IMG/VR virus record: IMGVR_UViG_3300023435_000002
Location: 1-59,445 of that record
DNA length: 59,445 nucleotides
From: a virus
Direction: 5' to 3' (one strand)
The position numbers and the translations under genes were made by a program. The notes beneath the pieces were generated by a model, which worked only from the letters and a program-made list of their open reading frames with translations, made no database searches and had not been told where the DNA came from. Positions 107-25,109 of the stretch are shown here, in pieces. The stretch's first letter is position 1, and each line of letters starts with the position of its first letter.

Positions 107-183
107 AAACTGAAACACAACCAGAAGATTTAATTGATGAAGCAGAATATATTTTCGGAAGAGAGGGAGAGAGAGGACTATGA
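103..183 (+). CDS. Small ORF, 26 aa ([26 protein letters not shown]), hypothetical
   Basis: ATGA overlaps at both ends link it to its neighbours. It is below the ORF-track size cut-off. Confidence 0.3.
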
Positions 184-467
184 ATAACTTCTGTAACTTC
201 TGTAACTCCTGTTACTCCTGTGACTACTGTAACTCCTGTTACTCCTGTGACTCCTGTTACTCCTGTAACTCCTGTTACTTCTGTGACTCCTGTAACTCCT
301 GTGACTCCTGTGACTCCTGTGAAAATCTTGTTAATGGATTTATGTGTATCAATCTAAAGCTAAACAAGAAAGATAAATCTAGATATTGGATATTTAATAA
401 AGAAGTTTCTAAAAAAGAATGGGATACGCGTTATAGAATAGGGGAGGAATTAGATGATGAAGACTAA
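180..467 (+). CDS. Cysteine-repeat protein with Cys at every third residue over about 45 aa, followed by a basic/acidic tail
   Basis: ORF track. The N-terminal part reads (C-[NDY]-[SFY])n with 16 Cys. Its start overlaps the upstream ORF as ATGA. Confidence 0.6.
192..320. repeat. About 14 tandem 9-bp units TGTNACTCC
   Basis: tgtaacttc tgtaactcc tgttactcc tgtgactac ... read directly. Most variation sits at the first base of the NAC codon (A/T/G). Confidence 0.9.
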
Positions 468-2203: not shown

Positions 2204-4346
2204 TAAGCAATTATTCCTTCAACACATTCAAGAAAAATATAAAGATATAAAAGTACACTTCATAGACCAACCTAATCATAACATTTGGAAGGCAGAAAAG
2301 ATGTTATCCCAATTAAGTATGAAAGAAATAAATGAAGTTAATCTCCGTAAGATTTTCTCTGATGAAATAGTTTTAGATATTGAAGAACCAGCTGAACTTG
2401 TTAAAATAAGAACCAAGCTCGATGATAAGAATTGGAGTTATTCCGTTTGGTCAACCGGCAGTAGAGGTTATCATATTTCTCTTATATTTGAAGACCTAGC
2501 ACAATATGATATTAAGGAACGAAATATGTTTAGGTCATACATTATAAAAGAATTTGGAACTGATGAAACCAAATCTAGTGAAAGAACATGGTTGGCTTTA
2601 GAACATGCAAAACATTTTAAGACCGGAAATGAAAAGAGATTAATTATAAAAAAGAATGGTAAAATTAATTTACTTCCTAATGCAGTAATAGATTATGTTA
2701 AGAAACTTTCAAAGATGTATGAGGAGAATAAATTAGAACAAGACGAAGACTTCACAGACTTTCTTAGTAATCCCTACTTAAAATGGGTATTAGAAAGAGA
2801 GGAACCATTGATGAATGGAAACAGAAATAGTGTTCTATTCAAGAATCTTGCCGTTGGATTAGTTCGGCATGGTTTGAATGAGCAAGAGATAAAAGATTAT
2901 GCAGAAAAGATAATATTAAAATGTCCTGGAAAATCTATTAGTGAATTTATGGGGTGGGTTCAAAAGGCAATAGTAGGGGAATTTACGGACTATAATATAT
3001 ATGAAATGGTTAAGTGGGCTGAAGAATATGACCATCCAATATTACATAAGCTTGTTGGTGGGGAGGATGATATTAAGAAATTAATGACTACGAAAGATAT
3101 GTGGGATATGATTTGGAATCATGAAATTGTATCACAACCTTTTTGGAAAGATTTATGTTTTTATTCAATGTTATCAGCAGTACTTCAAGAGAAAGAAAAG
3201 GATTATAGAATACATGGTATATTTTCATCATTCACTTCAACTGGAAAGGATGAGGGAATTAATTTAACACAAAAAGTTATTGAAGATTTTGGGTTAAGTA
3301 CATTAACATTAAGTGAGGCAACTGATAAAACTCTTGTAGGTGGAATCAATGAAACTTTAAAAGAATTTAATAGTAAAAATGGATTGGCTGAGGATGAAAC
3401 TAAAATAATTAGAGGTAATGAAGTTTCATATCAAACTCCTATTGAAAAAGGAGTATTGTCAACTTGTCAGTGGTTGGCTTTTCCAGAAGCGGAAAGTATA
3501 TTTAAACCAGGAGCGGCAAATATGAGAGTGCAAAGTATATTACGACAAGCTATGGATAAAAAAAGAAGAGTTGAAAAAGGAGTTGGAGGATTTATAATTA
3601 AAGCAGAAACTAATACTTCAATATTATTAGCATCTTATCCTCTTGATGATGTCATTGGTAAAATATTAGATAATGGATTATTTCAAAGAGTTATATTTTT
3701 TGATGCAAAAATATCTGAGGAGATGAGTGAAATTATTGAGAATCATCAAATAAAAAAAATGTTTAATCCTGATGATATTGATAAATATAATAAGGATATT
3801 TATATATTTCATTTAGTTGAAAAATTAAAGGAGACAAAGATGTGGTACGAAGAAAATAAAAACGAAATAAAATATAAAAATAATGAAATAGGAAATCATT
3901 TAACAATATTAAAAGATAAATTTAAAAAATCATATAGTATGCTACCAAAACATGATAAACATATTTTAGATGCAGTATTACGTAGAGGTATAGTTAATAT
4001 AAATAAGTTATGTATGTTAAATGCTGTTTGGAATCATAAAAAAGTGCTAACAAAAGATACAGTTGAGGAGATGTTTAATTTTTATATTCAGTCATTAAAT
4101 TGTATTAAATACTTACTACTTAAAAAAGATAATAATCAAAAGTTAATGATATCATTACGATATATGTTAAAGGATGGAAAAAGGACTTCGACATTTATAT
4201 ATGAGGAAATGAAAAAACACATGGGTATAACATCAACAAGTGTCTTCGCTAATTTTAAAAAGAAAGCATTGGCACAAAAAGTTGTTGAAGAGATTAAGGA
4301 AGGAAACTTTAGATATTTACAGTTAAATAAGGATTGTATAATGTAA
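2196..4346 (+). CDS. Primase-polymerase (AEP-like) with a large C-terminal domain, possibly a helicase/ATPase
   Basis: VLDIEEP and WSTGSRGYHISLIF resemble prim-pol motifs I and II. The C-terminal roughly 450 aa has only a deviant P-loop-like STGKDEG. Confidence 0.55.
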   Translation: MADKQLFLQHIQEKYKDIKVHFIDQPNHNIWKAEKMLSQLSMKEINEVNLRKIFSDEIVLDIEEPAELVKIRTKLDDKNWSYSVWSTGSRGYHISLIFEDLAQYDIKERNMFRSYIIKEFGTDETKSSERTWLALEHAKHFKTGNEKRLIIKKNGKINLLPNAVIDYVKKLSKMYEENKLEQDEDFTDFLSNPYLKWVLEREEPLMNGNRNSVLFKNLAVGLVRHGLNEQEIKDYAEKIILKCPGKSISEFMGWVQKAIVGEFTDYNIYEMVKWAEEYDHPILHKLVGGEDDIKKLMTTKDMWDMIWNHEIVSQPFWKDLCFYSMLSAVLQEKEKDYRIHGIFSSFTSTGKDEGINLTQKVIEDFGLSTLTLSEATDKTLVGGINETLKEFNSKNGLAEDETKIIRGNEVSYQTPIEKGVLSTCQWLAFPEAESIFKPGAANMRVQSILRQAMDKKRRVEKGVGGFIIKAETNTSILLASYPLDDVIGKILDNGLFQRVIFFDAKISEEMSEIIENHQIKKMFNPDDIDKYNKDIYIFHLVEKLKETKMWYEENKNEIKYKNNEIGNHLTILKDKFKKSYSMLPKHDKHILDAVLRRGIVNINKLCMLNAVWNHKKVLTKDTVEEMFNFYIQSLNCIKYLLLKKDNNQKLMISLRYMLKDGKRTSTFIYEEMKKHMGITSTSVFANFKKKALAQKVVEEIKEGNFRYLQLNKDCIM

Positions 4347-6659: not shown

Positions 6660-6788
6660 ATGATAAAAAATATAAAAAAAGAAACGGTAGAAGAAATAAG
6701 AGCTTTTTTAAAGTTTATTTCTGAAACATATGTCTTTGACCAAATGGCTATAACAGTGGCAAATAGATTAAGGAGAGAAATAAAATGA
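6660..6788 (+). CDS. Small ORF, 42 aa, first gene of the que operon
   Basis: Internal ATG of track ORF 6564..6788. The upstream part of that ORF runs through the structured element E1. ATGA overlap with queD. Confidence 0.4.
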   Translation: MIKNIKKETVEEIRAFLKFISETYVFDQMAITVANRLRREIK

Positions 6789-7204
6789 TAATAAAAGAAC
6801 AAACAAAATTCGATTTCGACTCAGCCCACAGGTTAGTTGGATATAAAGGATTGTGTAATAATTTACATGGTCATATTTGGACAGTTATAATTGATATTGA
6901 AGGAACAGAAAAAGATTTGGATGAGGTTGGAATACTTTGGGATTTTACTAATGTAAAAAAGATAAAGACAATCTTTGACCATAAAACTATTCTAAAGAAT
7001 TGTGATGAGAATCTAGCATTAATTAAAGAAATTAAAAGAACATGTGGAGCAGATGCAGTATTTGTAATGCATGATAATCCAACAGCTGAACATTTAGCTA
7101 TGTTAATTTTACAAACATTAGAACTTGAAAATGATAAGTTAAAGTTTAAAGTAAAAGTTTACGAGACCCCTAAAAGTTATGCGGAGGTGACTTCAAAATT
7201 ATAG
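6785..7204 (+). CDS. queD: 6-carboxy-5,6,7,8-tetrahydropterin synthase
   Basis: FDFDSAHRL...GLCNNLHGHIW (catalytic Cys plus HGH zinc motif). The size of about 139 aa fits. Confidence 0.85.
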   Translation: MIIKEQTKFDFDSAHRLVGYKGLCNNLHGHIWTVIIDIEGTEKDLDEVGILWDFTNVKKIKTIFDHKTILKNCDENLALIKEIKRTCGADAVFVMHDNPTAEHLAMLILQTLELENDKLKFKVKVYETPKSYAEVTSKL

Positions 7205-8616
7205 TGCACGAAATCTTCCGGTCAATTCAAGGGGAATCTACATACTCAGGTAAACCATGTATATTTGTAAGACTTGCTGGTTGCAATCTAAATTGTAGTT
7301 ATTGTCTTGTTGGTAATACTAAAATATTAACACCATTTAATAAATGTAGAAAGGGTATAAAAATAAAAGACTTAAAAAAAGGTGATAAAGTATTTTCTTT
7401 TAATGAAAAAAATAAAAAAATAGAAATAGATACAATAAAAAAAACTTTTTGTCGAGAAGTAAATGAGGTTCTTAAAATAACATTTAAGGATGGATGTAAT
7501 CAAAACGATAGAATATATACAACAAGTGAACATCCTTTTTATGTAGAAGGTAAGTGGATTACAGCTGGAAATTTAAAAATTAATGATGAACTTTGGTTTG
7601 CTGAATCTGTGAAAATTGAAAAAATAAAAAAAGGAAGAGCAAGATTATTTGGAAAAGATAATCCCAACTGGCGAGGAGGTATAGAACAAGCAAAATATAC
7701 TCATTGTCATAAAGAATGGAAACTAATGAGACAAAAAATACTAAAACGAGATGAATATACTTGTAAAAAATGTAAGTCAAAGGAAGACTTAGTGGTACAC
7801 CATATTGATTTTAATACAAGCCATAATACTGAAGATAATCTATGTGTATTATGTAGAAAATGTAATAGTAGTATAAATCATGGAAGATATGATTTTAAAA
7901 TACATAATGGAAAACAAATCATTAAGATAGAAAAAATATCAATAGATTCAAATAAAAAAGCATATATAAGACTATCAGGAAGTCAGAATAAAAAAATAAA
8001 AGTTTATAATATTGAAACTGAAAAAAATAATAATTATTTTGCTCCACGGGTTTTAGTACATAATTGTGATACAAAATATTCAGTTAGAACCTCACAAGGA
8101 AAGATAAAAAGTGTTCGTCAAGTATTTAGTGAAGTAAAAGCATTATATAAAGATGGAGATATAGTTGAGATTACAGGTGGAGAACCAATGTTACAAAAGA
8201 AAGAAGTGTTGGAACTTTCAAGAAAAATAATAAATAAATTGCAAGCTACAGTTTTAATAGAAACAAATGGTAGTATTTTATTAGAAAGAATATCCGAAGA
8301 ACCATATAATATTATTTACATAATGGATTGGAAATGTCCTAGTAGTGGAATGAATGATAAAATGGAATATGTTAATTTAGAAAGACTTACAGAATTTGAT
8401 GAGTTAAAATTTGTAATCGGAACACAAGAAGATTATGATGAAATGAAAAGAATAATTACTAAGTATAATCCAAGGTGTACAATACTAGCGAGTACAGTTT
8501 GGAATAAAATAAAGAGAGAAGATGTAGTAAAACAAATATTAGCAGACGGACTAAATGTTACATTTCAAGTCCAGATACATAAAATAATTTGGGATAAGAA
8601 TAAGAGGGGTGTTTAA
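7204..8616 (+). CDS. queE: 7-carboxy-7-deazaguanine synthase (radical SAM), interrupted by an intein
   Basis: GTG start. EIFRSIQGES...RLAGCNLNCSY-[254 aa]-CDTKY. Removing the insert restores CNLNCSYCDTKY. Confidence 0.85.
   Translation: MHEIFRSIQGESTYSGKPCIFVRLAGCNLNCSYCLVGNTKILTPFNKCRKGIKIKDLKKGDKVFSFNEKNKKIEIDTIKKTFCREVNEVLKITFKDGCNQNDRIYTTSEHPFYVEGKWITAGNLKINDELWFAESVKIEKIKKGRARLFGKDNPNWRGGIEQAKYTHCHKEWKLMRQKILKRDEYTCKKCKSKEDLVVHHIDFNTSHNTEDNLCVLCRKCNSSINHGRYDFKIHNGKQIIKIEKISIDSNKKAYIRLSGSQNKKIKVYNIETEKNNNYFAPRVLVHNCDTKYSVRTSQGKIKSVRQVFSEVKALYKDGDIVEITGGEPMLQKKEVLELSRKIINKLQATVLIETNGSILLERISEEPYNIIYIMDWKCPSSGMNDKMEYVNLERLTEFDELKFVIGTQEDYDEMKRIITKYNPRCTILASTVWNKIKREDVVKQILADGLNVTFQVQIHKIIWDKNKRGV
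7303..8064 (+). mobile_element. Intein (254 aa) with an HNH endonuclease domain
   Basis: Starts CLVGNTKILT. Has block-B-like TSEHPFY. Ends KVYNIETEKNNNYFAPRVLVHN, followed by Cys+1. The internal domain reads CKKC...HHIDFN...EDNLCVLCRKCN (HNH). Confidence 0.8.
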
Positions 8617-8617
8617 G

Positions 8618-8746
8618 ATGAAAAAGGAAAAAAATATAAATACTATAGAAGAGTTATTAAGAAGTAGAAGAAAATACCCACTAGCTACATTATCATTAAT
8701 TAAAGATATTGCAAGAAGAGTTAAAACATTGGAGAAGAAAAAATGA
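8618..8746 (+). CDS. Small ORF, 42 aa, hypothetical
   Basis: The ATG lies 2 nt after the queE stop. ATGA overlap with the next gene. Confidence 0.35.
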   Translation: MKKEKNINTIEELLRSRRKYPLATLSLIKDIARRVKTLEKKK

Positions 8747-9144
8747 AAAATAAAATATACATGAGTTGGGAAGATTTTGGATTAGCTCTTGATGAGTTAG
8801 TTGAAGAGATTGATGATAATTCTTTTGTAGATTATGATGGAGTATTTGGAATGCCAAGAGGTGGACTTCCCGTTGCAGTAGCTCTTTCTCATAAGTTAAA
8901 TTTACCATTAGTATATAATGCAGAAGATATTACAAATAATACATTAGTTGCTGATGATATAAATGATACTGGTAATACTCTTAATGAAATTTCTAAATGT
9001 AATGATATTGCTACAATATATCAAGCTCCGTGGTCGAGTTTCACTTCAAACTTTTTTGTAAGACATAAAGTATCAAAAGATACTTGGATTATATTTCCTT
9101 GGGAAGATTGGGAAACAGAATTAAATACGGAGGATTCGGAATAA
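8743..9144 (+). CDS. Type I phosphoribosyltransferase, Gpt-like (xanthine/guanine PRTase family)
   Basis: YMSWEDF..., PRGGL, VADDINDTGNT (PRPP loop) and KDTWIIFPWE parallel the E. coli Gpt layout as I recall it. Confidence 0.7.
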   Translation: MKNKIYMSWEDFGLALDELVEEIDDNSFVDYDGVFGMPRGGLPVAVALSHKLNLPLVYNAEDITNNTLVADDINDTGNTLNEISKCNDIATIYQAPWSSFTSNFFVRHKVSKDTWIIFPWEDWETELNTEDSE

Positions 9145-9187
9145 TGGAAGAAGTACAAACTACTATACCAGATTTTGAATAATCATA

Positions 9188-9853
9188 ATGTTAGATAAAA
9201 GTAAGTGTGATGTAAAACTTGGAAAGAAGGTGAATAAATATTTAATTAAAAAAAGGGTACAAACTCCTATGAGTCACGATATTTTTTGTGAGGATGATAA
9301 GTTATCAGTAATTGAAGGTGAGATGAGATGTATAATGGAAATGCTTGGATTAGACTTAGAGGATGACAGTCTAAAAGAAACTCCTAAAAGAGTTGCTAAG
9401 ATGTTTGTTAATGAATTATTTTGGGGATTAGAAGAATGTAATTTTCCTAAATGTACAGTTGTGGATAATAAAATGAAATATGATGAGATGGTTTTAGAAA
9501 AGAATATTAAAAGTATGAGTAATTGTGAGCATCATTTTGTAACTATTGATGGAGTGGCTCATATTGCATATATACCAAATAAAAAGGTTCTTGGATTAAG
9601 CAAATTAAATAGAATAGTAGAATACTTTAGTAGACGACCACAAATACAAGAACGATTAACCGAACAAATATTTTATGCTTTAGAGTGTATTTTAGGAACT
9701 TCCGATATTGCAATAGTAATGGAAGGAGAGCATTATTGTGTAAAAAGTAGAGGGGTGGAAGATATTAATAGTAGTACAATCACGAGTAAATTAGGAGGAG
9801 TATTCAAAACAAAGCCAACAGTAAGAGCTGAGTTTATGAGTTTAATAAAATGA
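9188..9853 (+). CDS. folE: GTP cyclohydrolase I
   Basis: ETPKRVAKMF, SNCEHHF, SRRPQIQERLT, EGEHYCVKSRG. Confidence 0.9.
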   Translation: MLDKSKCDVKLGKKVNKYLIKKRVQTPMSHDIFCEDDKLSVIEGEMRCIMEMLGLDLEDDSLKETPKRVAKMFVNELFWGLEECNFPKCTVVDNKMKYDEMVLEKNIKSMSNCEHHFVTIDGVAHIAYIPNKKVLGLSKLNRIVEYFSRRPQIQERLTEQIFYALECILGTSDIAIVMEGEHYCVKSRGVEDINSSTITSKLGGVFKTKPTVRAEFMSLIK

Positions 9854-10569
9854 TTACAATAAAAAAGAATATTAAAGAATTTATTTCTCTTTTAGATATT
9901 ATAAAAAATGTTGCTGCAGAAACTAATTTTGAATTTAGAGAAGAAGGATTGTTTGTAAGGTTTGCTCATTTGTCTGGTTTTTCATTAGGACTTCTAACAT
10001 TAAAGAAAAGTTTCTTTGATGAATATACCATGCCAAAAGAAACTATAATTGCAATTGATACTCTTTTATTTTATAAGATTATTAAAAAATTAGGAAAGAA
10101 AGAATTAAAAATTGAGATTACAGAGAATGGATGTGAAATAAAGGTTGTTTCAGGTAAGTCTTTTTTTGCATTGAAAACTTATACAGTTCCAAAGGATGAG
10201 CGGGATATTCCAAAACCAAACTATGAATCTTCATGGACAATTGATTGTATGGATTTTTTTAATTTAATAACAGAACATTTAGAATTTACTACTGTAGCAA
10301 GATTTGAAAGTAAAGATGATACGTTAAAAACTACAATAAAATCAAATATGATTTCAGGAGAAGTATTTACTACAGCTGTGCCAATATTAAAATGTGACAC
10401 TTTTGCTTTTTATGACATTAGTTATTTAGTTACAGTATTGGGTATAAAATCAATGGTTGATAAAATTGAATTTTCTTTTGGAAAAGATGTACCTTGTAAA
10501 GTTGGATGTCACAATGAAGATATTACATTTGAATGGTATTTGGCTCCTAGAGTGGGGGACGAGGATTAA
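9850..10569 (+). CDS. PCNA-like sliding clamp
   Basis: 239 aa. The N-terminus FISLLDIIKNVAAETNFEFREEGLFVRFAHLSGFSLGLLTL follows the PCNA pattern, and size and position fit. ATGA overlap with folE. Confidence 0.6.
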   Translation: MITIKKNIKEFISLLDIIKNVAAETNFEFREEGLFVRFAHLSGFSLGLLTLKKSFFDEYTMPKETIIAIDTLLFYKIIKKLGKKELKIEITENGCEIKVVSGKSFFALKTYTVPKDERDIPKPNYESSWTIDCMDFFNLITEHLEFTTVARFESKDDTLKTTIKSNMISGEVFTTAVPILKCDTFAFYDISYLVTVLGIKSMVDKIEFSFGKDVPCKVGCHNEDITFEWYLAPRVGDED

Positions 10570-10902
10570 ATGTCAAGCTTTATTTGGATTACTACACAAT
10601 TTGAAGGATTTCACAAATATCCAGACGCACCTGATGAAGTTAAATTTTTAAAATTAACTCATAGACATATATTTAAATTAAAAGTATGGATTGAAGTTTT
10701 TCATGATGATAGAGATATTGAATTCTTTATTTTTAAAAAATATGTAAATACTTTAATTAGTGAATCCAACTTGGATTATATGAGTTGTGAAATGATTAGT
10801 GATAAATTACAAGGGATAATAACTAAAAAATATCCTGATAGAAAAATAAAAATTGAAGTATCAGAAGATGGTGAAAATGGGAGTTATATAGAATATGAAT
10901 GA
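10570..10902 (+). CDS. QueD/PTPS-like T-fold paralog lacking the catalytic Cys
   Basis: TTQFEGFHKYPDAPDEVKFLKLTHRHIFKLKVWIEV aligns by eye to the QueD FxxAHxL...C..LHGHxF segment. It has HRH in place of HGH and no Cys. Confidence 0.45.
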   Translation: MSSFIWITTQFEGFHKYPDAPDEVKFLKLTHRHIFKLKVWIEVFHDDRDIEFFIFKKYVNTLISESNLDYMSCEMISDKLQGIITKKYPDRKIKIEVSEDGENGSYIEYE

Positions 10903-11329
10903 TTTTTGGATTGGTACTGAGATGGAAGGTAGATTCACTGGATTAAGAACATTATTTATTAAGGGTGACCAAAATTTATCTGATATAGTTAAAATATTGA
11001 ATTCTTATAAAGTAATTTCTCATTTATATTTTGGTGCTGGACATCAATATCCTGTTTTTAGATATAATAGAATGATGGAGTTAGTTGATAAAGGATATGT
11101 AATAACATTTGAAATATCAAATGAATGTTTACAATTTGTACCACATCATATTATTAAATGTAAACAAATTCATATGATAGTTACATTTAAAAATAAGAAT
11201 GTTGCTTTATTAAAACCAACAGACACAATCAAAGTTGAGGATAGAACTAATGTTTATGCAACATCATTATGCACTATGTACCATACTGATAAAAATGTGG
11301 CATATGAAGGGGATGTGGTTATAAAATGA
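10895..11329 (+). CDS. Hypothetical protein (144 aa) inside the deazaguanine island
   Basis: ORF track. Overlaps both neighbours. I recognise no motif. Confidence 0.6.
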   Translation: MNDFWIGTEMEGRFTGLRTLFIKGDQNLSDIVKILNSYKVISHLYFGAGHQYPVFRYNRMMELVDKGYVITFEISNECLQFVPHHIIKCKQIHMIVTFKNKNVALLKPTDTIKVEDRTNVYATSLCTMYHTDKNVAYEGDVVIK

Positions 11330-12477
11330 GTACTGTATGGTATTTACCTTTGGAAATTGTAAGTAGTAGGTATACTCAACAACTTTGTGGAAAATGGATA
11401 CCTGACGGTATTAAACAATATATTAAATCAGAGGATACTTTTAAAGTAATAGAAGGTACTTCAATTGATACAGAAATTAAAGTTGGTTGTGTATTGGATG
11501 CAACTGGTAGAGGAATTTATAGTTTAACACAAGTTGCAAAGTTTTTAGAAGAAATAAGAAATGGTAATGTTAAGGATAATGATATTGTTTATATTCAGGA
11601 TATGTGGACACCAGGAATAGAGGCAATTCAATATGCAATTGATTTATATAAAATGAAATTAAAAATATATACAATGTGTCACGCACAATCTGTTGATACA
11701 TATGATTTTACATATACAATGAAGGAATGGATGCGACCAATAGAATTAGGTTATGACAAAATGTTTAAATATGGTGGAATTTTTGTTGGTTCTAGTATTC
11801 ATAAAAAACAATTAAGAAAAGCTGGATTTAAAGCACCAATTTTTATAGTGAGTTTACCTTTTTGTTATAATGAAGTTAAAGAAAGAATAAAAGATTTTCC
11901 TAAAAATAATGAAAACGCAATTGTATTTTCTTCAAGATTGGATTGGGAAAAGAAACCATTATTTATGTTAAGTGTGGTAAAAAAGTTTTTAAAGAAATAT
12001 CCTGATTGGAAAATATATGTTACAACTTCAGGGAAAGAAATAAGAAGTAATCAGGAAGGTGTTGTTAAAAAATTAAGGGATTATGCAAATAAAAATAGTA
12101 GATTTATATTAAAAGAGGGAATAACAAAAGACGAATATTATAGGCTGTTGTGTTCCTCAAAAATACAATTAAATACTTCATTGCAGGATTATGTTAGTTG
12201 GACAGTAATTGAATCTACCATATGTGAATGTGATATTTGTTTTCCAGACTTTAGAAGTTTTCCTGAGTTTATTCCAAATGATAGACTTTATAAAACTTGG
12301 AAAGTAAATAGTGTACTAGAAATATTAGACAAATGTATTACTAATCCTAAAAATCATGATTGGATAGCTAAAATATCTGACTTTGGTCGTTTAACAGAAT
12401 GTAATATTATGTGTAATGATATAAAGCATGAAGTAAATGTATGGGATTCAATTCCTGATTTTATAGATGCAAATTAA
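11326..12477 (+). CDS. Putative GT-B fold glycosyltransferase
   Basis: The C-terminal half (AIVFSSRLDWEKKPLFML...KIYVTTSG...) looks like a GT-B Rossmann domain. The call is weak and based on motifs only. Confidence 0.4.
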   Translation: MSTVWYLPLEIVSSRYTQQLCGKWIPDGIKQYIKSEDTFKVIEGTSIDTEIKVGCVLDATGRGIYSLTQVAKFLEEIRNGNVKDNDIVYIQDMWTPGIEAIQYAIDLYKMKLKIYTMCHAQSVDTYDFTYTMKEWMRPIELGYDKMFKYGGIFVGSSIHKKQLRKAGFKAPIFIVSLPFCYNEVKERIKDFPKNNENAIVFSSRLDWEKKPLFMLSVVKKFLKKYPDWKIYVTTSGKEIRSNQEGVVKKLRDYANKNSRFILKEGITKDEYYRLLCSSKIQLNTSLQDYVSWTVIESTICECDICFPDFRSFPEFIPNDRLYKTWKVNSVLEILDKCITNPKNHDWIAKISDFGRLTECNIMCNDIKHEVNVWDSIPDFIDAN

Positions 12478-13612
12478 AATTCCTGAATTGAATAGTAGAT
12501 ACATTCCTGTTCATGGTGGTTATGGTCATGTAGAAAAACATATGAATTGGTGGAGTGCTGATTCTCCTTATTTATATGAATTTGGATTATTTAATTTATT
12601 ACACTTTAAAAAAGAACAGATGAATATTATTAGAGGTCAATCTCCTAATATGTTTATTTTAACTGATAGTGGAGGTTTCCAGGTTGTTTCAGGTACTTGT
12701 AATTTGAATTGGGAAACTTCAATTTTACAACAAATTAGATTAAAAGCATCAAAAATATTTTCGTTAGATAAACCAACAGTACACCAAAAGGCATCAGAGG
12801 GTTCATTAACAAATTTTGTTTACATGAATGATACGGAGGCATTTGCAACTATTAAAGATAATTTTGATGTTGCTTTAAAACAATCAAAATATTTAAAAGA
12901 AAAATACCCTGAGGAATTTAAAAAATTTTGTTATATTATGCAAGGTAAATCAATTAATCAAATTGACTATAATATGAACCTATTTAAAGAGGAATTAGGT
13001 GGTGTTGATAAGTATTTGGAATATTTTCCTGGTGGAATAGTATATGCCTCAAAGGGTGGTGATAACTTATTTATTTCTATGGCAGCAAGACATGCCTATG
13101 ATAATTTTGTTTCTAAAGGAATTTATGTACATTTTTTAGGTATGGGTTCATTTTATAGAATGATTATTTTAATTAGAAATATGATTTCAACTTTTGATAG
13201 TTCAACATTATTACAAGGTGTACGAGTAAATGAATTTATTAATCCTTTAAATTTAAATAACACATTACAATTATCATCAGAAAATTTATCTGGTTTTACG
13301 AAGGAGTTTTGTGTATGTCCTGTTTGTAGTGTAACAGATTATCATGATTTAATGAAAAATGATAAACAAGAAATTGGAAGAAAATGTACAATGCACAACC
13401 TATGGCATTTATTAAAAATGAATATATTTTTGGATTCAATTCCTAAGGACAATTACACAACTATTATAATTAAAAATTTTAAAATAAGTGATGATGTTAA
13501 ACGTTCTTTAGAATTTTTAGATTGTTGCGACCAATATGGGTTTAACATTGCCTATAATAAGTATAAACACTATCTTAAAAAAGATATAACTAAACAAACA
13601 AGTTTATTTTAA
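12467..13612 (+). CDS. dpdA: DpdA-like DNA 7-deazaguanine transglycosylase (TGT superfamily)
   Basis: LTDSGGFQV catalytic motif and CVCPVCS...TMHNLWH zinc site. At 381 aa it has no PUA or C-terminal ArcTGT domains. Confidence 0.8.
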   Translation: MQIKIPELNSRYIPVHGGYGHVEKHMNWWSADSPYLYEFGLFNLLHFKKEQMNIIRGQSPNMFILTDSGGFQVVSGTCNLNWETSILQQIRLKASKIFSLDKPTVHQKASEGSLTNFVYMNDTEAFATIKDNFDVALKQSKYLKEKYPEEFKKFCYIMQGKSINQIDYNMNLFKEELGGVDKYLEYFPGGIVYASKGGDNLFISMAARHAYDNFVSKGIYVHFLGMGSFYRMIILIRNMISTFDSSTLLQGVRVNEFINPLNLNNTLQLSSENLSGFTKEFCVCPVCSVTDYHDLMKNDKQEIGRKCTMHNLWHLLKMNIFLDSIPKDNYTTIIIKNFKISDDVKRSLEFLDCCDQYGFNIAYNKYKHYLKKDITKQTSLF

Positions 13613-13613
13613 A

Positions 13614-15512
13614 ATGATAACTAACAAAATACCTAAAAATACTCTAATTTATGATATAGAATGTGCTACTTATGGTTATGATGTTAGTGATACTAAAAAT
13701 CATAAAATGAAATTCTTTGGTGCTTATAGTTATAAAACAAAACAATATTATGTTTATCAAAATTTATCTGATATACAAAAAATAATAAATCAACATAAAT
13801 TTATTGTTGGGTTTAATACAAAAAATTATGATAATCCAATTATAGAACAATCTGGAATAGATATTACATATAAAATAAAAATAGATTTATATAAGATAAT
13901 TCAACAACGAATGAGTTCAATAAAATTTAAAGATTCAGTTTTGGCATATCATTTACCAAGTTTAAGTTTAGATGTTATTACGCAAGTCTTAGGTTTGACA
14001 GATGATAGTAGTAAGAAATTAGATTTTGATTATACTCTTTTAAATAAAGAAGAATTTATGGATGAAGAAATTACTTTAATTGAAACCTATACTAAACGAG
14101 ATATTGAAATCACTAAGAAGTTGTGGGAATATGTGGTGAACACATTTGATAGTTGGAAACATCATTTACATCCCGATGATGCTAAAAAATTAAAACATTT
14201 AAGTTGTGCTCCTAGTGTTTATGCTTATAAAGTAATATGTGATAAAGTTGGTCTTGAAGAAATTTATGATGACGATGCAGAATATACTTCAAGTTTGCGA
14301 GAAGGTGGTTATGTTGCTTATCCAGCTTGTGAAAAACTAGAAGGTAATATCTATTGCTTAGATTTTGCATCGTTGTATCCACATATAATGATTCAATGTA
14401 ATTTGTATGGTAGAAATAAACAAGTGGATTATGGTTGGCACGGTAATGATAAATTTAAAATAAATGGATATTATGAAAATAAAGATATAAATAAAATTAG
14501 TTGGGCCCTACTTCAAATTTATAAAGAAAGAAAGGAACTAAAAAAGAAAAAGGATAAAAAAGAATATGGACTGAAAATTGTAATGAATACTATTTATGGT
14601 CTACTTAGGAATCCAGTTTTTAAAAGTGTATTTGATGATGTAGCAGGAAATGATTGTTGTTTGTTAGCACAACAATGGATTAAACTAGCAATGCAAAAAT
14701 ATAAAGATGAAGGATATAATGTTTTTTATGGAGATACTGATAGTGTTTATTTGGAGGATGTTTTTAATGATGAAGAAAAAATGTTAAGACATAAGGAAGA
14801 AGTTATTGCAGACATAAAAAATAACATTCCTTTTCCACAAGATACTTTTGATATGGATATAGATTATAAAATAGATTTTATTCATTTTTTTAAAGGTGGA
14901 CATAAAAAAGAAGATTCAGAAGTTGAAGGAGATGATATAAAAAATAAGGAATTAGGTCTTATGAAAAAGAATTATATTTTTGTATATGATGATAAAGGAG
15001 AGAAAAAAGTATTTATTAAAAATTTAGGTATTGTTAAAAGAAGTAATTCTAAATTAAGTAAGAAAATATTTTGGGAAAAAATGACACCATATATTTTAAA
15101 GTCACATGTTGCAAAGTTCCCAGACCAACAAATAAAAGAATGGATACATGAGGAATTAAATAAGGATATATATCAATTATCTAAAAGAGTATCTGTTAAA
15201 AAGTTAAGTTCATATAAAAGTAAAAATTGTATGAATGCACAAGCACACGAATATATTCCAAAGGGTGAAACTTCAAAACTTGGTCCAGGATTTCATTTTT
15301 TAATTCCAAATAAAAAATTTGGTATTGGAAAAAGTATGGCGAAATATTGTACAATTCAAGAATATAAAAAATATCTTACATATAATGATTTAAATTTGAA
15401 TCCTATTTTGAAAGAATTGAAATATTTTAATTCAGAGTTTGAATTGGAAATATTAAGAAAGAAAAAATATATCCCGATTGAAAAAAGAATGGAACAAAAA
15501 GGATTATGGTAA
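13614..15512 (+). CDS. polB: Family B DNA polymerase
   Basis: Exonuclease motifs YDIECAT, FNTKNYDNPII and YTKRDIEIT. Polymerase motifs LDFASLYPHIM, KIVMNTIYG and YGDTDSVY. Confidence 0.93.
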   Translation: MITNKIPKNTLIYDIECATYGYDVSDTKNHKMKFFGAYSYKTKQYYVYQNLSDIQKIINQHKFIVGFNTKNYDNPIIEQSGIDITYKIKIDLYKIIQQRMSSIKFKDSVLAYHLPSLSLDVITQVLGLTDDSSKKLDFDYTLLNKEEFMDEEITLIETYTKRDIEITKKLWEYVVNTFDSWKHHLHPDDAKKLKHLSCAPSVYAYKVICDKVGLEEIYDDDAEYTSSLREGGYVAYPACEKLEGNIYCLDFASLYPHIMIQCNLYGRNKQVDYGWHGNDKFKINGYYENKDINKISWALLQIYKERKELKKKKDKKEYGLKIVMNTIYGLLRNPVFKSVFDDVAGNDCCLLAQQWIKLAMQKYKDEGYNVFYGDTDSVYLEDVFNDEEKMLRHKEEVIADIKNNIPFPQDTFDMDIDYKIDFIHFFKGGHKKEDSEVEGDDIKNKELGLMKKNYIFVYDDKGEKKVFIKNLGIVKRSNSKLSKKIFWEKMTPYILKSHVAKFPDQQIKEWIHEELNKDIYQLSKRVSVKKLSSYKSKNCMNAQAHEYIPKGETSKLGPGFHFLIPNKKFGIGKSMAKYCTIQEYKKYLTYNDLNLNPILKELKYFNSEFELEILRKKKYIPIEKRMEQKGLW

Positions 15513-17795: not shown

Positions 17796-18037
17796 GAAAA
17801 AAAGGGTCAGTAAATTATCAATATAAAATAAGACAAGTTGCTCAAAATCAACAAGGTACTCTTATACATGCTATTACAATCCCAAATTTTATTGCAGAAA
17901 AATTTAAAAATACAAAATTTATTTTAAAATTAGAAAATAATTGTATGATATTTAGTTCTGGATGTGATATAAAAGTTATGTCTAAAGATGATTCCTTTTT
18001 TGATAAATATACAAAAGAAAAGGAGATTGTACAATGA
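17792..18037 (+). CDS. Hypothetical protein, possibly AbrB-like
   Basis: GTLIHAITIPNFIAEKF weakly resembles a SpoVT/AbrB hairpin. ATGA overlaps. Confidence 0.5.
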   Translation: MRKKGSVNYQYKIRQVAQNQQGTLIHAITIPNFIAEKFKNTKFILKLENNCMIFSSGCDIKVMSKDDSFFDKYTKEKEIVQ

Positions 18038-19281
18038 CAAAAAATATAACTTGGCTTTCCGATAGTGCATTCTTACCAACTGGGTATGCCACTATGACTC
18101 TACATATTTTAAATGGATTATCAGAATTAAAAAATGAAGATGGAACTCCAAAATATAATTGTCATCAATTAGCTCATAATTATGTAGGACAAACTCAAAT
18201 TCCAGGAACTACTTTTGAAGATGGAACTAAAACTAACTTTACAATTCATGGAAATGGATTAAGACCATATTGTCAAGATATTATTACCCATAAATTACAA
18301 GAATTAGATACAGATGTATTTGTTACGTTATTAGATACTTTCATGGTGGCACCATTCTATCCACAACATGATTTTGGTAAAGCAAAAACAGTGTTCTATT
18401 ATCCAAGTGATGGTGGTTCAGGGTTACCTTTTGGATGTGAAACTACATTACAAAAAATGGATAAATCTATTTCAATGAGTAGATATGGAAAAGAACAAGT
18501 GGAAAGTATGCATAAAATTTCAAGTGGATTTATTCCACATGGTATTAATATAGATATGTTTCATCCATTAGAACCAGAACAAAAAATTGAAATTAAAAGA
18601 ATAATGGGAATTAAAGATAAGTTTGTTATTGGAACAGTCGCAAGAAATCAAGGTAGAAAAATGTTAGATAGAACAATTAAAGCCTTTGCATTATTTGCAG
18701 AGGGTAGAGATGATGTAGTTTTAGTTATGCATTGTGACCCTCAAGACCCAGCGGCAGTATCTTCTTTACCACAATTGATTGAAAGATATGGAGTACAGAA
18801 TAAAGTAATTTTTACTGGTATGAGATATTTTAAAGGATTTACATATGACCAAATGAATGACGTGTTTAATTGTATGAATATGTTTATACTCACCACTTCT
18901 GGAGAAGGTTTTGGAATGCCTATATTAGAAGCCATGGCATGTGGAGTTCCAGCTTTAGTAACTAACTATACAACCACTCAAGAGTTAGTTTTGGATAATG
19001 ATGCCGGATTGGGAATAAATTTAGTAGGAACAGAAGAAGACGAAAATCCAAAGGTCCATGAAAATGAAATAGTTAATGGAACAATAACTGGTGGATTTGC
19101 TGTTGAAAGAGGAATTTGTTGTTTAAAGGATGCAGCACTAAAAATGAAATTCTTTTATGATAATAGAGAAGAAGGAATACGAATGGGAAAAAATGGTAGA
19201 AAAGCAGTATTAAAACAATATGATTGGAAATTAATTATAAATCAGTGGGATGAAGTTATGGAGGAACTAACTAGATTATGA
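18034..19281 (+). CDS. Glycosyltransferase, GT-B (family 4-like)
   Basis: FVIGTVARNQGRK... and TTSGEGFGMPILEAMACGVPALVTNYTTTQELV (EX7E region). Confidence 0.8.
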   Translation: MTKNITWLSDSAFLPTGYATMTLHILNGLSELKNEDGTPKYNCHQLAHNYVGQTQIPGTTFEDGTKTNFTIHGNGLRPYCQDIITHKLQELDTDVFVTLLDTFMVAPFYPQHDFGKAKTVFYYPSDGGSGLPFGCETTLQKMDKSISMSRYGKEQVESMHKISSGFIPHGINIDMFHPLEPEQKIEIKRIMGIKDKFVIGTVARNQGRKMLDRTIKAFALFAEGRDDVVLVMHCDPQDPAAVSSLPQLIERYGVQNKVIFTGMRYFKGFTYDQMNDVFNCMNMFILTTSGEGFGMPILEAMACGVPALVTNYTTTQELVLDNDAGLGINLVGTEEDENPKVHENEIVNGTITGGFAVERGICCLKDAALKMKFFYDNREEGIRMGKNGRKAVLKQYDWKLIINQWDEVMEELTRL

Positions 19282-20465
19282 GTCAGGTAGATTTAGTTAA
19301 CTTAAATGAAAGAGGAATACTTGACCATGCGGGTGATAGAGTTCCAACAGGATTATTAAGTATAGCTAGTTCAATGAGAGCTAAAGGACATCCCACAGAT
19401 ATATATGATTTAAATAAATTTTCTGAGGAGGCTTTTGTTGAACATGTTAATTATAGTGAACCTGATGCAGTGGGAATATCAGTTTACACAAGTCCAATGT
19501 TAGAGAGAGCCAAAGAGTTAGCCGGAAGATTAAAAGGAAAAACTAGATTAGTAGCAGGTGGATATCATGCAACAGCAATGCCGGAAAGCCTATTACCATA
19601 TTTTGATGCAGTAGTAGTTGGAGAAGGAGAGAATGCACTTGAAAGAGCATTAAGAGAAGATGGAGTAATTCCAAGAGATACTCCAGACTTAAATGAAACT
19701 CCTAATATAAACTTAAATGAATTAGGGGAATATACAATTGATGGAAGACAAGGAACAATGATAACAAGTAGAGGATGTCCTTATTCGTGTTCATTCTGTG
19801 GTAATTTTTCAAGTAAAGTAAGAGATGAACCACTTTGGAAAATGCAAGAACAAATAAGACAATTAGAAAAAAATGGAGTAGAGTCAGTTTATTTTTTAGA
19901 TGACATGTTTACCTTACGAGAAGATAGAATGGATGAAATAGGAATGATGGCACAGAATGCTGGGTTGGCATTTAGAGCTACAACTAGAGCAGACTCTCTA
20001 AATGATAGTAAGTTAGATAAATTAAAATCAAGAGGATGTGAAGTATTAAGTTTGGGAGTAGAGAGTGGGAATGAAGAAATACTAAAGAGAATTAATAAAA
20101 GGGAAACACCAGAACAAATATATGAAGCAGTAAGAAAGGCTGGAGAGAGAGGAATAGATACTAAAGGTTTCTTTATAATGGGACTTCCAGGAGAGACAGA
20201 AGATACAGCTAGGGATACAATGAACTTTTCAAGAAAACTTAAAAAAGCAGGAATGAAGCAAGCAGACTTTTACTATCTTTGTCCCTTCCCTGGAACTCCA
20301 ATATGGAATTACCCAGAGAAATTCGGAATAACTATAAAAGATAGAGATTTTACTAAATATTTACAAGCCGGTCAAAGTGCAAGATGTGTAATAGATACTG
20401 AAGAATTAAGTGCACAAAGAATCGAGGAACTAACAGAGGAGGCTAGAAGACAATGGAAAAATTAA
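19278..20465 (+). CDS. B12-binding-domain radical SAM enzyme
   Basis: N-terminal Rossmann-like LLSIASSMRAKGH...AVGISVYTS...LVAGGYHAT, then ITSRGCPYSCSFCGN (CX3CX2C). Confidence 0.8.
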   Translation: MSQVDLVNLNERGILDHAGDRVPTGLLSIASSMRAKGHPTDIYDLNKFSEEAFVEHVNYSEPDAVGISVYTSPMLERAKELAGRLKGKTRLVAGGYHATAMPESLLPYFDAVVVGEGENALERALREDGVIPRDTPDLNETPNINLNELGEYTIDGRQGTMITSRGCPYSCSFCGNFSSKVRDEPLWKMQEQIRQLEKNGVESVYFLDDMFTLREDRMDEIGMMAQNAGLAFRATTRADSLNDSKLDKLKSRGCEVLSLGVESGNEEILKRINKRETPEQIYEAVRKAGERGIDTKGFFIMGLPGETEDTARDTMNFSRKLKKAGMKQADFYYLCPFPGTPIWNYPEKFGITIKDRDFTKYLQAGQSARCVIDTEELSAQRIEELTEEARRQWKN

Positions 20466-21697
20466 TAGTAATGATTATGGGACAGAATTGTGAAAAATTT
20501 ATTAAGATGTGTTTAGATAGTACTGAAGATGCAGATGCAAGAATATATTGTGATGGTGGTAGTACGGATTCAACTCTTGATATAGTAGAGAATAGAATAG
20601 GAAAGAAGTCAATAATAAGCAATAAGTATGACCAAGAGGATAAAAAGATGAATGGAAAGCAAAGGAACTTTTATTTAAAATATTTGAAAGAAAACTATCC
20701 AGACCATTGGGCACTTTGTTTAGATGCTGACGAAGTAGTAGAAGACTTGAGTAAGATTAAAGAGTTTATTAACGACCCATTAGGAGAAGGTTTGTTTTCT
20801 GTAAAGATGAGACATTTGATTCAGGATTTAGCGCATGAGGATGCAACTGCTGAAACTCATTATGTTCTAAACAGATTGTTTAAAATAAATAAAGCCGATA
20901 AATATCCAGAAGTTGAACATCCAGTGTTACAAGGTGAAGTAGTGGGAGGAACAGCTTGTACGACAATCTGGCATCTTGCGTACATTCCAAACTTATGGGA
21001 CATCAAGAAACGTTATGATAGCCACATGAAAAAGTCACAAATGCACACACCAGAGTATTTAGCAAGTTGGTACAAAGCACATTTGTTTGGTCAATATCCA
21101 ACTAAACAATTCAACCCTGTGGAGTTACCAAAAGTAATATTAGATGAATTTGGGCTTGATAAGGATGAACTTTATTTTATGAATAGAGGATTGGAGACTA
21201 AACATTTTATAATGGCTAAGCAATGGCACAACTTTTTTGATGATGATGATAAAATGTTTGAAGTATTAGAATTTGGTTGTGGTAGAGCACCGTACGGATA
21301 TGCATTTGATATGATTGATGAAGAATGTTATATGGGAATAGAATTAAGTAAATATGCAGTAGACAATTCATTACTTCGTCACGATGTTTTGCAAGGTAAT
21401 GTAATTGATTGTTACCTTGAAACAGAAGTTAAATTAGTGATAGCATTTGATTTATTAGAACATCTAAAATATAAAGACTTAGATAAAGCTATTAACAATA
21501 TAATAAACCATTCAAGTAAATACATTCTAATAAGTGTTCCAGTACTAGGAGACCCAAACCTAGAAGCAGACCCAACACATATAATCAAAGAAACTAAAGA
21601 ATGGTGGATTAAACAATTCACAGACAAAGATTTAAAATTAATTAAAACACCAGAACATTTTCTGTTTAAGGAGCAGATTATGATATTTGAAAAATGA
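20453..21697 (+). CDS. Fusion of a GT-A (family 2-like) glycosyltransferase and a class I SAM methyltransferase
   Basis: N-terminal part: IMGQNCEKFIKMCLDS...YCDGGSTDSTLDIV...LDADE. C-terminal part: VLEFGCGRAPYG...AFDLLEHL. Confidence 0.65.
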   Translation: MEKLIVMIMGQNCEKFIKMCLDSTEDADARIYCDGGSTDSTLDIVENRIGKKSIISNKYDQEDKKMNGKQRNFYLKYLKENYPDHWALCLDADEVVEDLSKIKEFINDPLGEGLFSVKMRHLIQDLAHEDATAETHYVLNRLFKINKADKYPEVEHPVLQGEVVGGTACTTIWHLAYIPNLWDIKKRYDSHMKKSQMHTPEYLASWYKAHLFGQYPTKQFNPVELPKVILDEFGLDKDELYFMNRGLETKHFIMAKQWHNFFDDDDKMFEVLEFGCGRAPYGYAFDMIDEECYMGIELSKYAVDNSLLRHDVLQGNVIDCYLETEVKLVIAFDLLEHLKYKDLDKAINNIINHSSKYILISVPVLGDPNLEADPTHIIKETKEWWIKQFTDKDLKLIKTPEHFLFKEQIMIFEK

Positions 21698-21846
21698 AAC
21701 TACAAGAATACTTAAAAAAATCACTAGAAGAAATATCTAAACAATGTATAACCACTGCAGAAATAGAATTAATATTAGACGATAAATTAAACGTAACTGA
21801 AAAAGGCCATCAAAGAATTTCTTTAACATTATACACAATAAAATGA
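21694..21846 (+). CDS. Small ORF, 50 aa, hypothetical
   Basis: ATGA junctions on both sides fill the 146-nt gap in the track. Confidence 0.4.
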   Translation: MKLQEYLKKSLEEISKQCITTAEIELILDDKLNVTEKGHQRISLTLYTIK

Positions 21847-22358
21847 ACTACACACATAGAGATTTAGCAATGGAAGAAGTTGAAAAGTTTAGAGAAGAGA
21901 ACTTCCCACAAAGAGTTTTGGAAATAGGCGCAGGGCATAATTCTTTTGAATATATTTTTAATGCTAATAGATATACTTGTATTGATAATCAATCTCAATA
22001 CAAAGGGAAATCAATAAAGATGGATGTTCATAATATGACATTTGAAGATGATGAATTTGATTGTGTATTTATGTGTCACGTTGCAGAACATTTTATTAAT
22101 CTAGCACAAGCATTTTCAGAAATAAAAAGAGTACTAAAAGATGGTGGAAAAGTATTTAGTATTACACCTAATAATTGTGAACATCAGATTTTAAAAGGTG
22201 ACGGAGACCATATATTTGTATTAGGACCAATGCAATGGATTAGATTATTAGCTAATTTAGGATTTAAAAATATTAAAAGTTATAAACAAATGACATGGAA
22301 AGAAGGACAGATTCTAAAGGAACAAGATTATAATATAATAACGGTGGCTGAAAAATGA
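21843..22358 (+). CDS. Class I SAM-dependent methyltransferase
   Basis: VLEIGAGHNS, FDCVFMCHVAEHF, LKDGGKVF. Confidence 0.75.
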   Translation: MNYTHRDLAMEEVEKFREENFPQRVLEIGAGHNSFEYIFNANRYTCIDNQSQYKGKSIKMDVHNMTFEDDEFDCVFMCHVAEHFINLAQAFSEIKRVLKDGGKVFSITPNNCEHQILKGDGDHIFVLGPMQWIRLLANLGFKNIKSYKQMTWKEGQILKEQDYNIITVAEK

Positions 22359-25013: not shown

Positions 25014-25109
25014 ATATACCACTATTTCTTTTTATAGTCTAAAACAGGCACTATTTATATATAGAAAATAACAAATAACGTAGTTCTATGACTAATCATG
25101 CATACAAAG

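Follow-up and report, generated by a model that had tools for sequence, protein, structure and literature searches.

The DNA of Cellulophaga phage phiST has 2'-deoxy-7-deazaguanosine (dDG) instead of every dG, and dCDG, the deoxynucleoside of 7-carboxy-7-deazaguanine (CDG), was not detected in it (PMC10516641). The enzyme proposed to decarboxylate CDG is DpdL, a QueD-like T-fold protein in which the CxxxHGH motif of QueD is changed to LxxxHRHxF (Cui 2023, PMC10516641). DpdL was found in phages that possess the CDG genes and have no QueC, and it was modelled as acting on the free base (PMC10516641). We analysed a 59,445-nucleotide stretch of viral DNA, IMG/VR record IMGVR_UViG_3300023435_000002 (hereafter the window), with attention to the gene island at positions 6785-13612. 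This island probably encodes a QueC-independent, DpdL-type module for 7-deazaguanine modification of DNA that is co-transcribed with replication genes. The window would represent a further member of the DpdL route, in an uncultured tailed virus with a family B DNA polymerase (PolB) and PCNA, from anoxic or saline metagenomes.

As in the dDG system of phiST (FolE, QueD, QueE, DpdL and DpdA3; PMC10516641), CDG genes and DpdL are present in the window and QueC is absent. In both genomes, the DpdL cluster has the CDG genes on one side and the polymerase gene on the other. The DpdL of phiST bears LxxxHRHxF and is 35% identical to that of the window, and gp064, a homologue of a small phosphoribosyltransferase (PRT) of the island, is encoded elsewhere in the phiST genome. 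On the other hand, the phiST transglycosylase is the short DpdA3 (259 amino acids (aa)), with no detectable similarity to the 381-aa DpdA of the window, which has a Zn site. The phiST cluster contains a MazG-like NTP pyrophosphohydrolase and a small ATPase, whereas two other proteins of the island, a GT4-like glycosyltransferase (GT) and an orphan of 144 aa (u144), were not found by a hidden Markov model (HMM) search of the whole phiST genome. The polymerase also differs, being PolIII-alpha in phiST and PolB, accompanied by PCNA, in the window.

A second system for comparison is that of Acidovorax phage ACP17, which shares a four-gene set with the window in the block ASD50402-ASD50406, where the neighbours of DpdL are annotated as hypothetical. 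The set comprises a u144-like protein (ASD50402), a long DpdA that resembles tRNA-guanine transglycosylases (TGTs) (ASD50403; hhalign probability 83%), a GT4-like protein (ASD50404) and DpdL (ASD50405; 49% identity). It is flanked by QueD, FolE (65% identity) and QueE, with no QueC, and the genes for the u144-like protein, DpdA, the GT-like protein, DpdL and QueE are consecutive. ACP17 differs from the window in its gene order, in its T4-like bacterial myovirus backbone and in its QueD motif, which is CxxxHGY rather than CxxxHGH. No PRT was found in the ~16-kb locus around the DpdL of ACP17.

CDG genes and DpdL in the island

A sequence-only reading of this DNA had described FolE, QueD, QueE and a TGT-family gene in a tight, co-oriented array that ends 1 nt before a family B polymerase gene. 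All four genes were found at the same positions on the + strand, with every quoted motif, and the packing was confirmed. Five further genes of the island, those for PRT, PCNA, DpdL, u144 and the GT4 glycosyltransferase, had gone unrecognised. QueD (6785-7204, +) has the canonical CxxxHGH motif, read as CNNLHGH in the translation, and matches Pfam PTPS (PF01242, E 1.1e-22) and phrog_2389 (E 1.7e-22). FolE, a GTP cyclohydrolase I (9188-9853, +), reaches 304 bits with NF006824 against a cut-off of 202 (E 3.7e-91), matches PF01227 (E 7e-62), contains all three quoted motifs and is 64.5% identical to the FolE of ACP17.

QueE (7204-8616, +) is interrupted by an intein. Two NCBIfam QueE models match it, TIGR03963 with E 2e-52 and the other with E 2.5e-45; the TIGR03963 score does not reach the curated cut-off, as the match is divided by the intein. 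The intein, recognised by Pfam Intein_splicing (E 2.6e-10) and PT-HINT (E 8.7e-18), is exactly 254 aa long (window 7303-8064) and lies between CNLNCSY and CDTKY, inside the radical-SAM CxxxCxxC. Its boundaries were set by alignment with the intein-free alleles of the loci L005 and L007. It has an HNH-type homing endonuclease region, and its +1 Cys is the third cysteine of the cluster. After conceptual splicing the motif reads CNLNCSYC, so that the protein has the radical-SAM CxxxCxxC as well as its match to the QueE family. Since L005, a near-identical virus, has an intein-free QueE allele CNLNCSYCDTKY, the presence of the intein is polymorphic in the population.

The ORF (open reading frame) at 10570-10902 (+), of 110 aa, encodes DpdL. 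Its LKLTHRHIF is the DpdL signature LxxxHRHxF and aligns with the motif in the DpdL proteins of ACP17 and phiST. The protein matches phrog_17812 (E 4.7e-29) and no Pfam or NCBIfam model. When it was compared by tblastn with 50,697 phage records, 29 records matched, and the signature aligned in all of them. Among them are the two proteins to which PMC10516641 gives the name DpdL, with identities of 48.7% for that of ACP17 (E 4e-26) and 34.8% for that of phiST (CGPG_00067; E 3e-12). A longer form occurs in Vibrio phage Bakedbeans, where gp176 (L069 19179-20360; 383 aa within a 394-aa open frame) contains a full C-terminal DpdL domain and a partial DpdL-like match upstream, and may be a tandem T-fold protein.

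The SGGxDS motif of QueC occurs in none of the six frames of the window. Pfam searches of the island and the other ORFs, with the 571-aa and 1991-aa tail ORFs outside the scan, found no QueC, QueF, ArcS or amidotransferase. Moreover, an HMM made from the QueC, QueC-like and Gat-QueC proteins of relatives (seven viral sequences) had no match among the six-frame ORFs of the window from 50 aa upwards, the tail ORFs being covered as well. A canonical preQ0 pathway, with a QueC PP-loop ATPase that bears SGGxDS and a C-terminal Cys cluster, was not found in the window, and the earlier statement that the 59 kb hold no QueC, no QueF-like protein and no amidotransferase is borne out.

The sequence-only reading had also suggested that the inserted base might derive from CDG and be processed by neighbouring proteins into something not yet characterised. 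The first half of this suggestion gains support from DpdL. The QueC-less layout, however, is an already known type that the published DpdL route answers, and since DpdL has been described and dDG characterised in phiST, the core of the island is not uncharacterised chemistry. The idea of a new derivative survives in a narrower form, confined to u144 and the GT4 protein.

In the proposed pathway, GTP would yield CDG through FolE, QueD and, once freed of its intein, QueE, a chemistry that is established for these families. DpdL, probably with u144, would act on CDG in the stead of QueC and remove the carboxyl to give 7-deazaguanine, as its homology to a predicted enzyme suggests. DpdA would then put 7-deazaguanine in the place of guanine in the replicated, double-stranded viral DNA, a step to which its family membership and context point. 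The guanine released by DpdA would be recycled by PRT to GMP and then to GTP, the substrate of FolE. More speculatively, the GT4 protein might transfer a sugar from a nucleoside diphosphate (NDP)-sugar onto the free base, a precursor or the modified DNA, or might have an accessory role. The modified genome would be resistant to G-dependent restriction. Because the DpdL route is joined here by GT and u144, the final nucleoside would be dDG or a derivative of the dDG type that is elaborated further, possibly by glycosylation. Plain dDG is a real possibility that we nonetheless place below an even chance, and we give a further elaborated base the same standing. The probabilities of the readings weighed in this work overlap and do not sum to one.

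u144 and the GT4-like glycosyltransferase

GT383, a 383-aa protein (11326-12477, +), matches Pfam Glycos_transf_1 weakly (E 0.0026), and AlphaFold2 and Foldseek point to a GT4-like retaining GT-B glycosyltransferase. The AlphaFold2 model (predicted local distance difference test (pLDDT) 92.6) has a GT-B fold, and a Foldseek search of the PDB with it retrieved BshA, MshA, PimA and sucrose-phosphate synthase (E 1e-13 to 1e-10; template modelling (TM) score 0.58-0.64); in sequence, the solved structures ranked highest are only 10-14% identical to GT383. Across 39 homologues, R204-x4-K209 and D288-x7-E296 do not vary. These donor-motif residues align to RLDK and RDGMNxxxLE of a Tps1 chain, which we take to be the phosphate-, sugar- and ribose-binding residues in OtsA-type enzymes. 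Given the GT-B/GT4 fold of the model and the invariant donor-binding residues, GT383 is probably an active NDP-sugar transferase. The two-Rossmann GT-B fold, R-x4-K and D/E-x7-E are shared with BshA, MshA, PimA and OtsA (GT4/GT20); unlike these enzymes, GT383 occurs solely in the context of 7-deazaguanine gene sets. The known DNA glycosyltransferases of phages have 5-hydroxymethyl pyrimidines as substrates, and no thymidylate-synthase-like hydroxymethylase was found in the Pfam scans of the window.

The genomic surroundings of GT383 homologues are uniform in this respect. All 18 phage records that are positive for GT383 fall within the 29 that have DpdL, and the two genes are often adjacent. 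An HMM survey of 12 GT-bearing loci with very different viral backbones found u144 in 11, DpdL in nine and QueC in none; a TGT-like ORF was present in 10 of the 12 (11 if ACP17, where it is detected by hhalign alone, is counted). In four further GT-family contexts chosen at random, QueD, QueE and FolE were neighbours in all four. GT383 has 731 metagenomic homologues, Tara Oceans contigs among them, and in one of the four random contexts (L066) an NDP-sugar epimerase/dehydratase adjoins the GT homologue. In addition, the GT of ACP17 is the second-best structural match to GT383 among viral models (BFVD). We infer that this glycosyltransferase truly belongs to the module and that it most likely transfers a sugar at some step.

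The u144 protein (10895-11329, +) matches no Pfam, NCBIfam or PHROG family. Its profile gave noise only against PDB and Pfam, weak leucine-rich-repeat matches being discounted as compositional, and its single-sequence AlphaFold2 model was unusable (pLDDT 39). The family is nevertheless sizeable, with 152 cluster representatives at an E-value of 1e-3 or below. Two metagenomic proteins, P0190 (264 aa) and P0202 (265 aa), are fusions of an N-terminal DpdL, including HRHxF, and a C-terminal u144. By its gene neighbourhoods and fusions, u144 is a conserved candidate partner of DpdL. The small ATPase that follows DpdL in phiST (gp041) was considered as a homologue of u144 and rejected (hhalign probability 0.4%). 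That DpdL is usually accompanied by u144, sometimes in fusion with it, and by GT4 is new with respect to the literature searched, where queries on DpdL, on glycosylated deazaguanine and on a phosphoribosyltransferase role gave nothing beyond Cui 2023, restriction data on PA5oct and the dDG of Vibrio phage VP1.

Together, u144 and GT4 might act on the deazaguanine intermediate that is made without QueC and give it a sugar or elaborate it otherwise, so that the DNA would contain a 7-deazaguanine not yet described, a proposal that we put forward tentatively. Several points weigh against it, or against the DpdL module on which it is built. 7-Deazaguanine offers no obvious hydroxyl as a sugar acceptor. 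A Tara Oceans lineage possesses GT, u144 and a TGT-like ORF, and DpdL is undetectable in it. Conversely, the whole-genome search of phiST found DpdL but neither GT nor u144, and both are absent from the 20 kb on either side of DpdL in four more phages, namely Rhizobium phage RHph_I1_18, Aeromonas phage Ahp1 and Vibrio phages Bakedbeans and D479. Since phiST makes dDG without GT and u144, both proteins are dispensable for dDG as such. The specificity of the window's DpdA for DNA, and not tRNA, is drawn from genomic context. Finally, the decarboxylase activity of DpdL is itself a prediction, and DpdL together with DpdA from either phiST or ACP17 produced no dDG in Escherichia coli (PMC10516641).

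Cui et al. suggested that enzymes were missing in this experiment (PMC10516641). There are two classes of DpdL system: the class in which dDG was measured is without u144 and GT, and the window belongs to the other. This division fits both the lack of dDG in the E. coli experiments and the G modification of unidentified nature in phage PA5oct, which carries GT (PMC12191111). ASD50402 and ASD50404 are candidates for the missing enzymes of ACP17. If the proposal is true, it could explain why the DpdL and DpdA of ACP17 failed in E. coli; it could not do so for phiST, which is without both genes. The base made with u144 and GT4 would then be common to this lineage, to abundant marine viral lineages and to cultured phages, the cultured bearers being ACP17, the PA5oct group, Xanthomonas X1/BUDD, Burkholderia BCSR5, Sinorhizobium Phosso and Synechococcus BUCT-ZZ01. 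An additional DNA base may thus exist in cultured phages, with the G modification of PA5oct as a possible instance (PMC12191111).

The marine lineage was seen in three Tara Oceans or other marine contigs of 37-152 kb (L058, L064 and L065). These abundant viruses encode a ribonucleotide reductase, Cpn10/Cpn60, an RFC-like clamp loader and PolB, together with a QueD-like protein (CxxxHGY), QueE, FolE, u144 and a GT that is 52% identical to the GT of the window. Their TGT-like protein (394 aa) is without the Zn motif, DpdL and QueC are undetectable, and L058 and L064 have a 168-aa PRT. Such a gene content recalls what we presume to be that of the magroviruses of Marine Group II archaea.

The phosphoribosyltransferase and the QueC slot

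The small XGPRT-like purine phosphoribosyltransferase of the island (8743-9144, +) matches PF00156 (E 9e-7), the xanthine PRT model NF006613 (E 3e-12) and phrog_8995 (E 2e-18), and is 30% identical to gp064 of phiST. It is kept in relatives of the QueC type and in the marine Tara lineage. Homologues are present in phages with reported complete replacement of G (phiST, the Campylobacter CP220 group and Flavobacterium immuto_2-6A) and also in Synechococcus phage BUCT-ZZ01. In phiST, the CP220 group and the Flavobacterium immuto phages the protein stands alone. In Vibrio phage VpKK5 (Queuovirinae), orf32 (L062 5917-6819), a 300-aa 'GTP cyclohydrolase', is a fusion of PRT (the N-terminal ~110 aa) and FolE, and PRT matches also lie under coding sequences annotated as GTP cyclohydrolase in Stenotrophomonas, Pseudomonas, Sphingomonas and Variovorax phages. 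PRT goes unmentioned in the key literature on phage 7-deazaguanine modification, and its recurrence across 7-deazaguanine phages, once in fusion with FolE, is new with respect to the literature searched.

The occurrence of PRT homologues in exactly those phage groups where all G is replaced (phiST, the CP220 group and Flavobacterium immuto_2-6A) might suggest that modification occurs by replication. PRT would then make a 7-deazaguanine nucleotide, kinases and a reductase would convert it to the deoxynucleoside triphosphate and PolB would incorporate it, with a minor or proofreading role for DpdA. The position of the island between clamp and polymerase fits such a route, as does an ORF of L023 that adjoins QueC and, judged by sequence alone, is like a nucleoside 2-deoxyribosyltransferase. 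However, the same PRT is fused to FolE in VpKK5, and in the related Queuovirinae phages 9g and CAjan only about a quarter to a third of G is replaced, at specific DNA motifs. This fusion and this partial, motif-specific replacement make the polymerase route unfit and favour guanine salvage. In addition, the Pfam scans of the window found no dGTPase or MazG-type enzyme that would deplete dGTP, and the catalytic residues of DpdA are strictly conserved. We consider the replication route improbable; in the DpdL module, PRT would serve guanine salvage that feeds FolE.

Insertion of CDG itself, to give dCDG, with DpdL, u144 and GT acting on the carboxyl in DNA or serving some unrelated purpose, has a slim chance. 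Natural dCDG occurs in Sulfolobus virus STSV-2, phage DpdA2 inserts CDG at low efficiency in queC-deleted E. coli, the carboxylate is a conceivable acceptor for derivatisation, and the Tara lineage has GT and u144 without DpdL. GT4 enzymes, however, are not known to form acyl glycosides. Moreover, no CDG was detected in the DNA of phiST despite its DpdL gene set, and the model for DpdL has it act on the free base (PMC10516641).

The place that DpdL takes in the genome bears on the fate of QueC. The loci of DpdA homologues were collected from metagenomes and their genes tabulated. The gene order of the lineage is QueD-QueE-PRT-PCNA-FolE-[X]-DpdA-PolB, where X is a variable slot, and the DpdA proteins of the relatives are 40-58% identical. 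In the window, the slot holds DpdL, u144 and GT, and so it does in four more distinct loci (L009/L019, L010, L018 and L020). A canonical QueC occupies it in L007, L023, L035, L041, L042 and others, a Gat-QueC fusion (468 aa) in L053, and a divergent, QueC-like PP-loop protein (SGGMDC...CGNCKPC) in L028, L030 and L012, with a similar SCGIDS variant in L034. Some loci of the QueC type have extra genes in the slot, which by sequence reading alone were labelled HAD-like (85-109 aa), GT2, methyltransferase, class-V-like aminotransferase, dehydrogenase-like and nucleoside 2-deoxyribosyltransferase-like. The junction of FolE and DpdA is thus a hot spot for interchangeable finishing cassettes. Relatives such as L007, L023, L053, L028, L030 and L034 belong to the same lineage and have the same order, but with a PP-loop enzyme in the slot, which predicts dPreQ0, dG+ or a related nucleoside; the variety of the slot suggests that several distinct deazaguanine derivatives are made inside one virus lineage. 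The interchange of QueC, Gat-QueC, QueC-like and DpdL cassettes at one site is likewise new with respect to the literature searched. In a further locus, L045, a 264-aa ORF (2971-3765) combines the N-terminal half of FolE with the C-terminal third of a DpdA-family protein, the result of either a chimeric assembly or a deletion in which the cassette was lost.

Within this set of loci, the sublineage of the window alone is without any PP-loop enzyme, and DpdL occupies the place that QueC has in relatives. The QueC slot of the window is filled, not empty, which argues against the use of a borrowed host QueC, one of the options raised by the sequence-only reading. Under that option, host QueC, possibly with other host enzymes, would convert viral CDG to preQ0, and DpdA would insert preQ0 to give dPreQ0 or a derivative. 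QueC is common in bacteria and archaea, the virus itself has none, and the same DpdA family is paired with QueC in relatives, so its pocket may accept preQ0; merely two columns of DpdA distinguish viruses of the DpdL type from those of the QueC type. Yet in relatives the same slot holds a QueC, Gat-QueC or QueC-like gene of the virus's own, and QueC was found in none of the 12 loci that carry the GT module. Furthermore, DpdL phages with CDG genes have no QueC, and phiST, with the same QueC-less set, bears dDG and not dPreQ0 (PMC10516641). A host QueC is accordingly disfavoured, with a very slim chance, and the missing QueC is better read as a cassette swap than as dependence on the host.

DpdA, the island layout and the rest of the genome

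The DpdA-type protein (12467-13612, +; 381 aa) matches PF01702 (E 7e-5) and the archaeal TGT model TIGR00432 (E 1.3e-6), and contains DSGGFQV and CVCPVC. Invariant in 31 homologues are D67 (in DSGGFQ), D101-x-P103, D244 (in TFDSS) and the Zn ligands C282, C284, C287 and H310. In solved TGTs, the counterparts by alignment are the nucleophile region FDC for the D244 region and TDSGGFQ for DSGGFQ. A profile of the 31 homologues matches eukaryotic, bacterial and archaeal tRNA TGT structures with E 1e-7 to 6e-6, and the bacterial DNA transglycosylase 7ui4 with E 0.89 (11.6 bits), a score that does not place it with bacterial DpdA. The hhalign probability is 1% with DpdA1 (Vibrio phage VpKK5 orf33), which does not place it with DpdA1 either. 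It is 2% with DpdA3 of phiST (gp042), a comparison whose sensitivity is limited by the single reference sequence, and the family HMM found nothing in the phiST genome. No match was found to DpdA4 (Pfam DUF6610, PF20314), PF01702 being the sole Pfam match at an E-value of 0.1 or below. Weak relationships were seen with the long TGT-like proteins of ACP17 (hhalign 83%) and of the marine lineage (95%). We file this DpdA as a putative separate clade of the TGT superfamily, distinct from the DpdA1, DpdA3, DpdA4 and bacterial DpdA references tested; a separate clade with a Zn site would be new with respect to the literature searched.

There are 49 metagenomic homologues of this DpdA. A tblastn search of the 50,697 phage records gave no match, and a scan of 185,579 species-representative cellular genomes (one per GTDB species) found no member of the family and hence no provirus or host link. 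The only columns that separate DpdL-type from QueC-type viruses are T104 and N116. T104 (window 12776-12778) is Thr in five of five viruses of the DpdL type and Pro in 12 of 12 of the QueC type, and lies beside the invariant D101-x-P103 substrate-binding region. The two positions may form a specificity switch, a reading confounded with phylogeny, as the DpdL-type sequences are each other's closest relatives.

In bacteria, tRNA-Asp(GUC) is of the queuosine-carrying type. That the TGT-family enzyme acts on viral or host tRNA and not on DNA, the island being a translational auxiliary module, is very unlikely: the profile is nearer to tRNA TGTs (E 1e-7) than to 7ui4 (E 0.89), the enzyme retains the complete Zn site that tRNA TGTs typically have and the virus encodes a tRNA-Asp(GTC), but the DpdA gene directly precedes PolB in the window, as it does in all loci of relatives that extend as far as PolB, the variation of QueC, Gat-QueC and DpdL among relatives is typical of phage DNA systems, no relative of DpdA occurs in the species-representative cellular genomes, and the DpdL phages examined carry the modification in DNA (PMC10516641).

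Every ORF within 6785-13612 lies on the + strand, and the genes are densely packed, with overlaps of 1, 4, 4, 8, 4 and 11 nt, one gap of 43 nt and one exact abutment. A 1-nt gap separates the end of DpdA (13612) from the start of PolB (13614-15512, +), which matches PF00136 (E 3.3e-10) and NCBIfam DNA polymerase II models (E 2e-13). PolB is the boundary of the island and marks its replication context. The PCNA-type sliding clamp (9850-10569, +; NCBIfam archaeal sliding-clamp models, E 1.8e-17; PF00705, E 1.4e-4) is a replication gene inside the island and not an enzyme of the pathway. A 45-aa ORF (8609-8746, +) between QueE and PRT received no assignment.

The window is a genome-like contig of a tailed virus (59.4 kb, 30% G+C), in which Pfam recognises an HK97-type capsid protein, a terminase, a portal/MuF protein, a tail tube and a tape measure. 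Neither megablast of the island nor tblastn of the presumed major capsid protein found a match in the 50,697 phage records, which thus offer neither a cultured relative nor a hint of the host. A cluster at 18034-24874 (+) encodes a GT1, a B12-binding radical-SAM protein, a GT2-methyltransferase fusion, a methyltransferase, a GT2 and a GT1. It was considered as a source of pathway-specific base-processing enzymes and rejected, since the QueC-type relative L007 shares this glycan and radical-SAM cluster, the first part of which is conserved there. The cluster probably serves glycan or virion modification.

The first ORF of the window (180-467, +; 95 aa) begins with CxxC-type repeats and was assigned to no family. 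The large terminase appears to be split (50925-52288, -) into an ATPase (Terminase_6N, 51518-52288) and a nuclease (Terminase_6C, 50925-51521) whose genes overlap by 4 nt. Three tRNA genes on the - strand, at 25109-25255 and 53113-53183, are for Met(CAT), Asp(GTC) and Ala(TGC). Finally, a 121-aa ORF (54057-54422, -) matches only the C-terminal ~45 residues of the anaerobic ribonucleotide reductase NrdD (PF13597, E 6e-9) and may be a stand-alone glycyl-radical 'spare part' domain.

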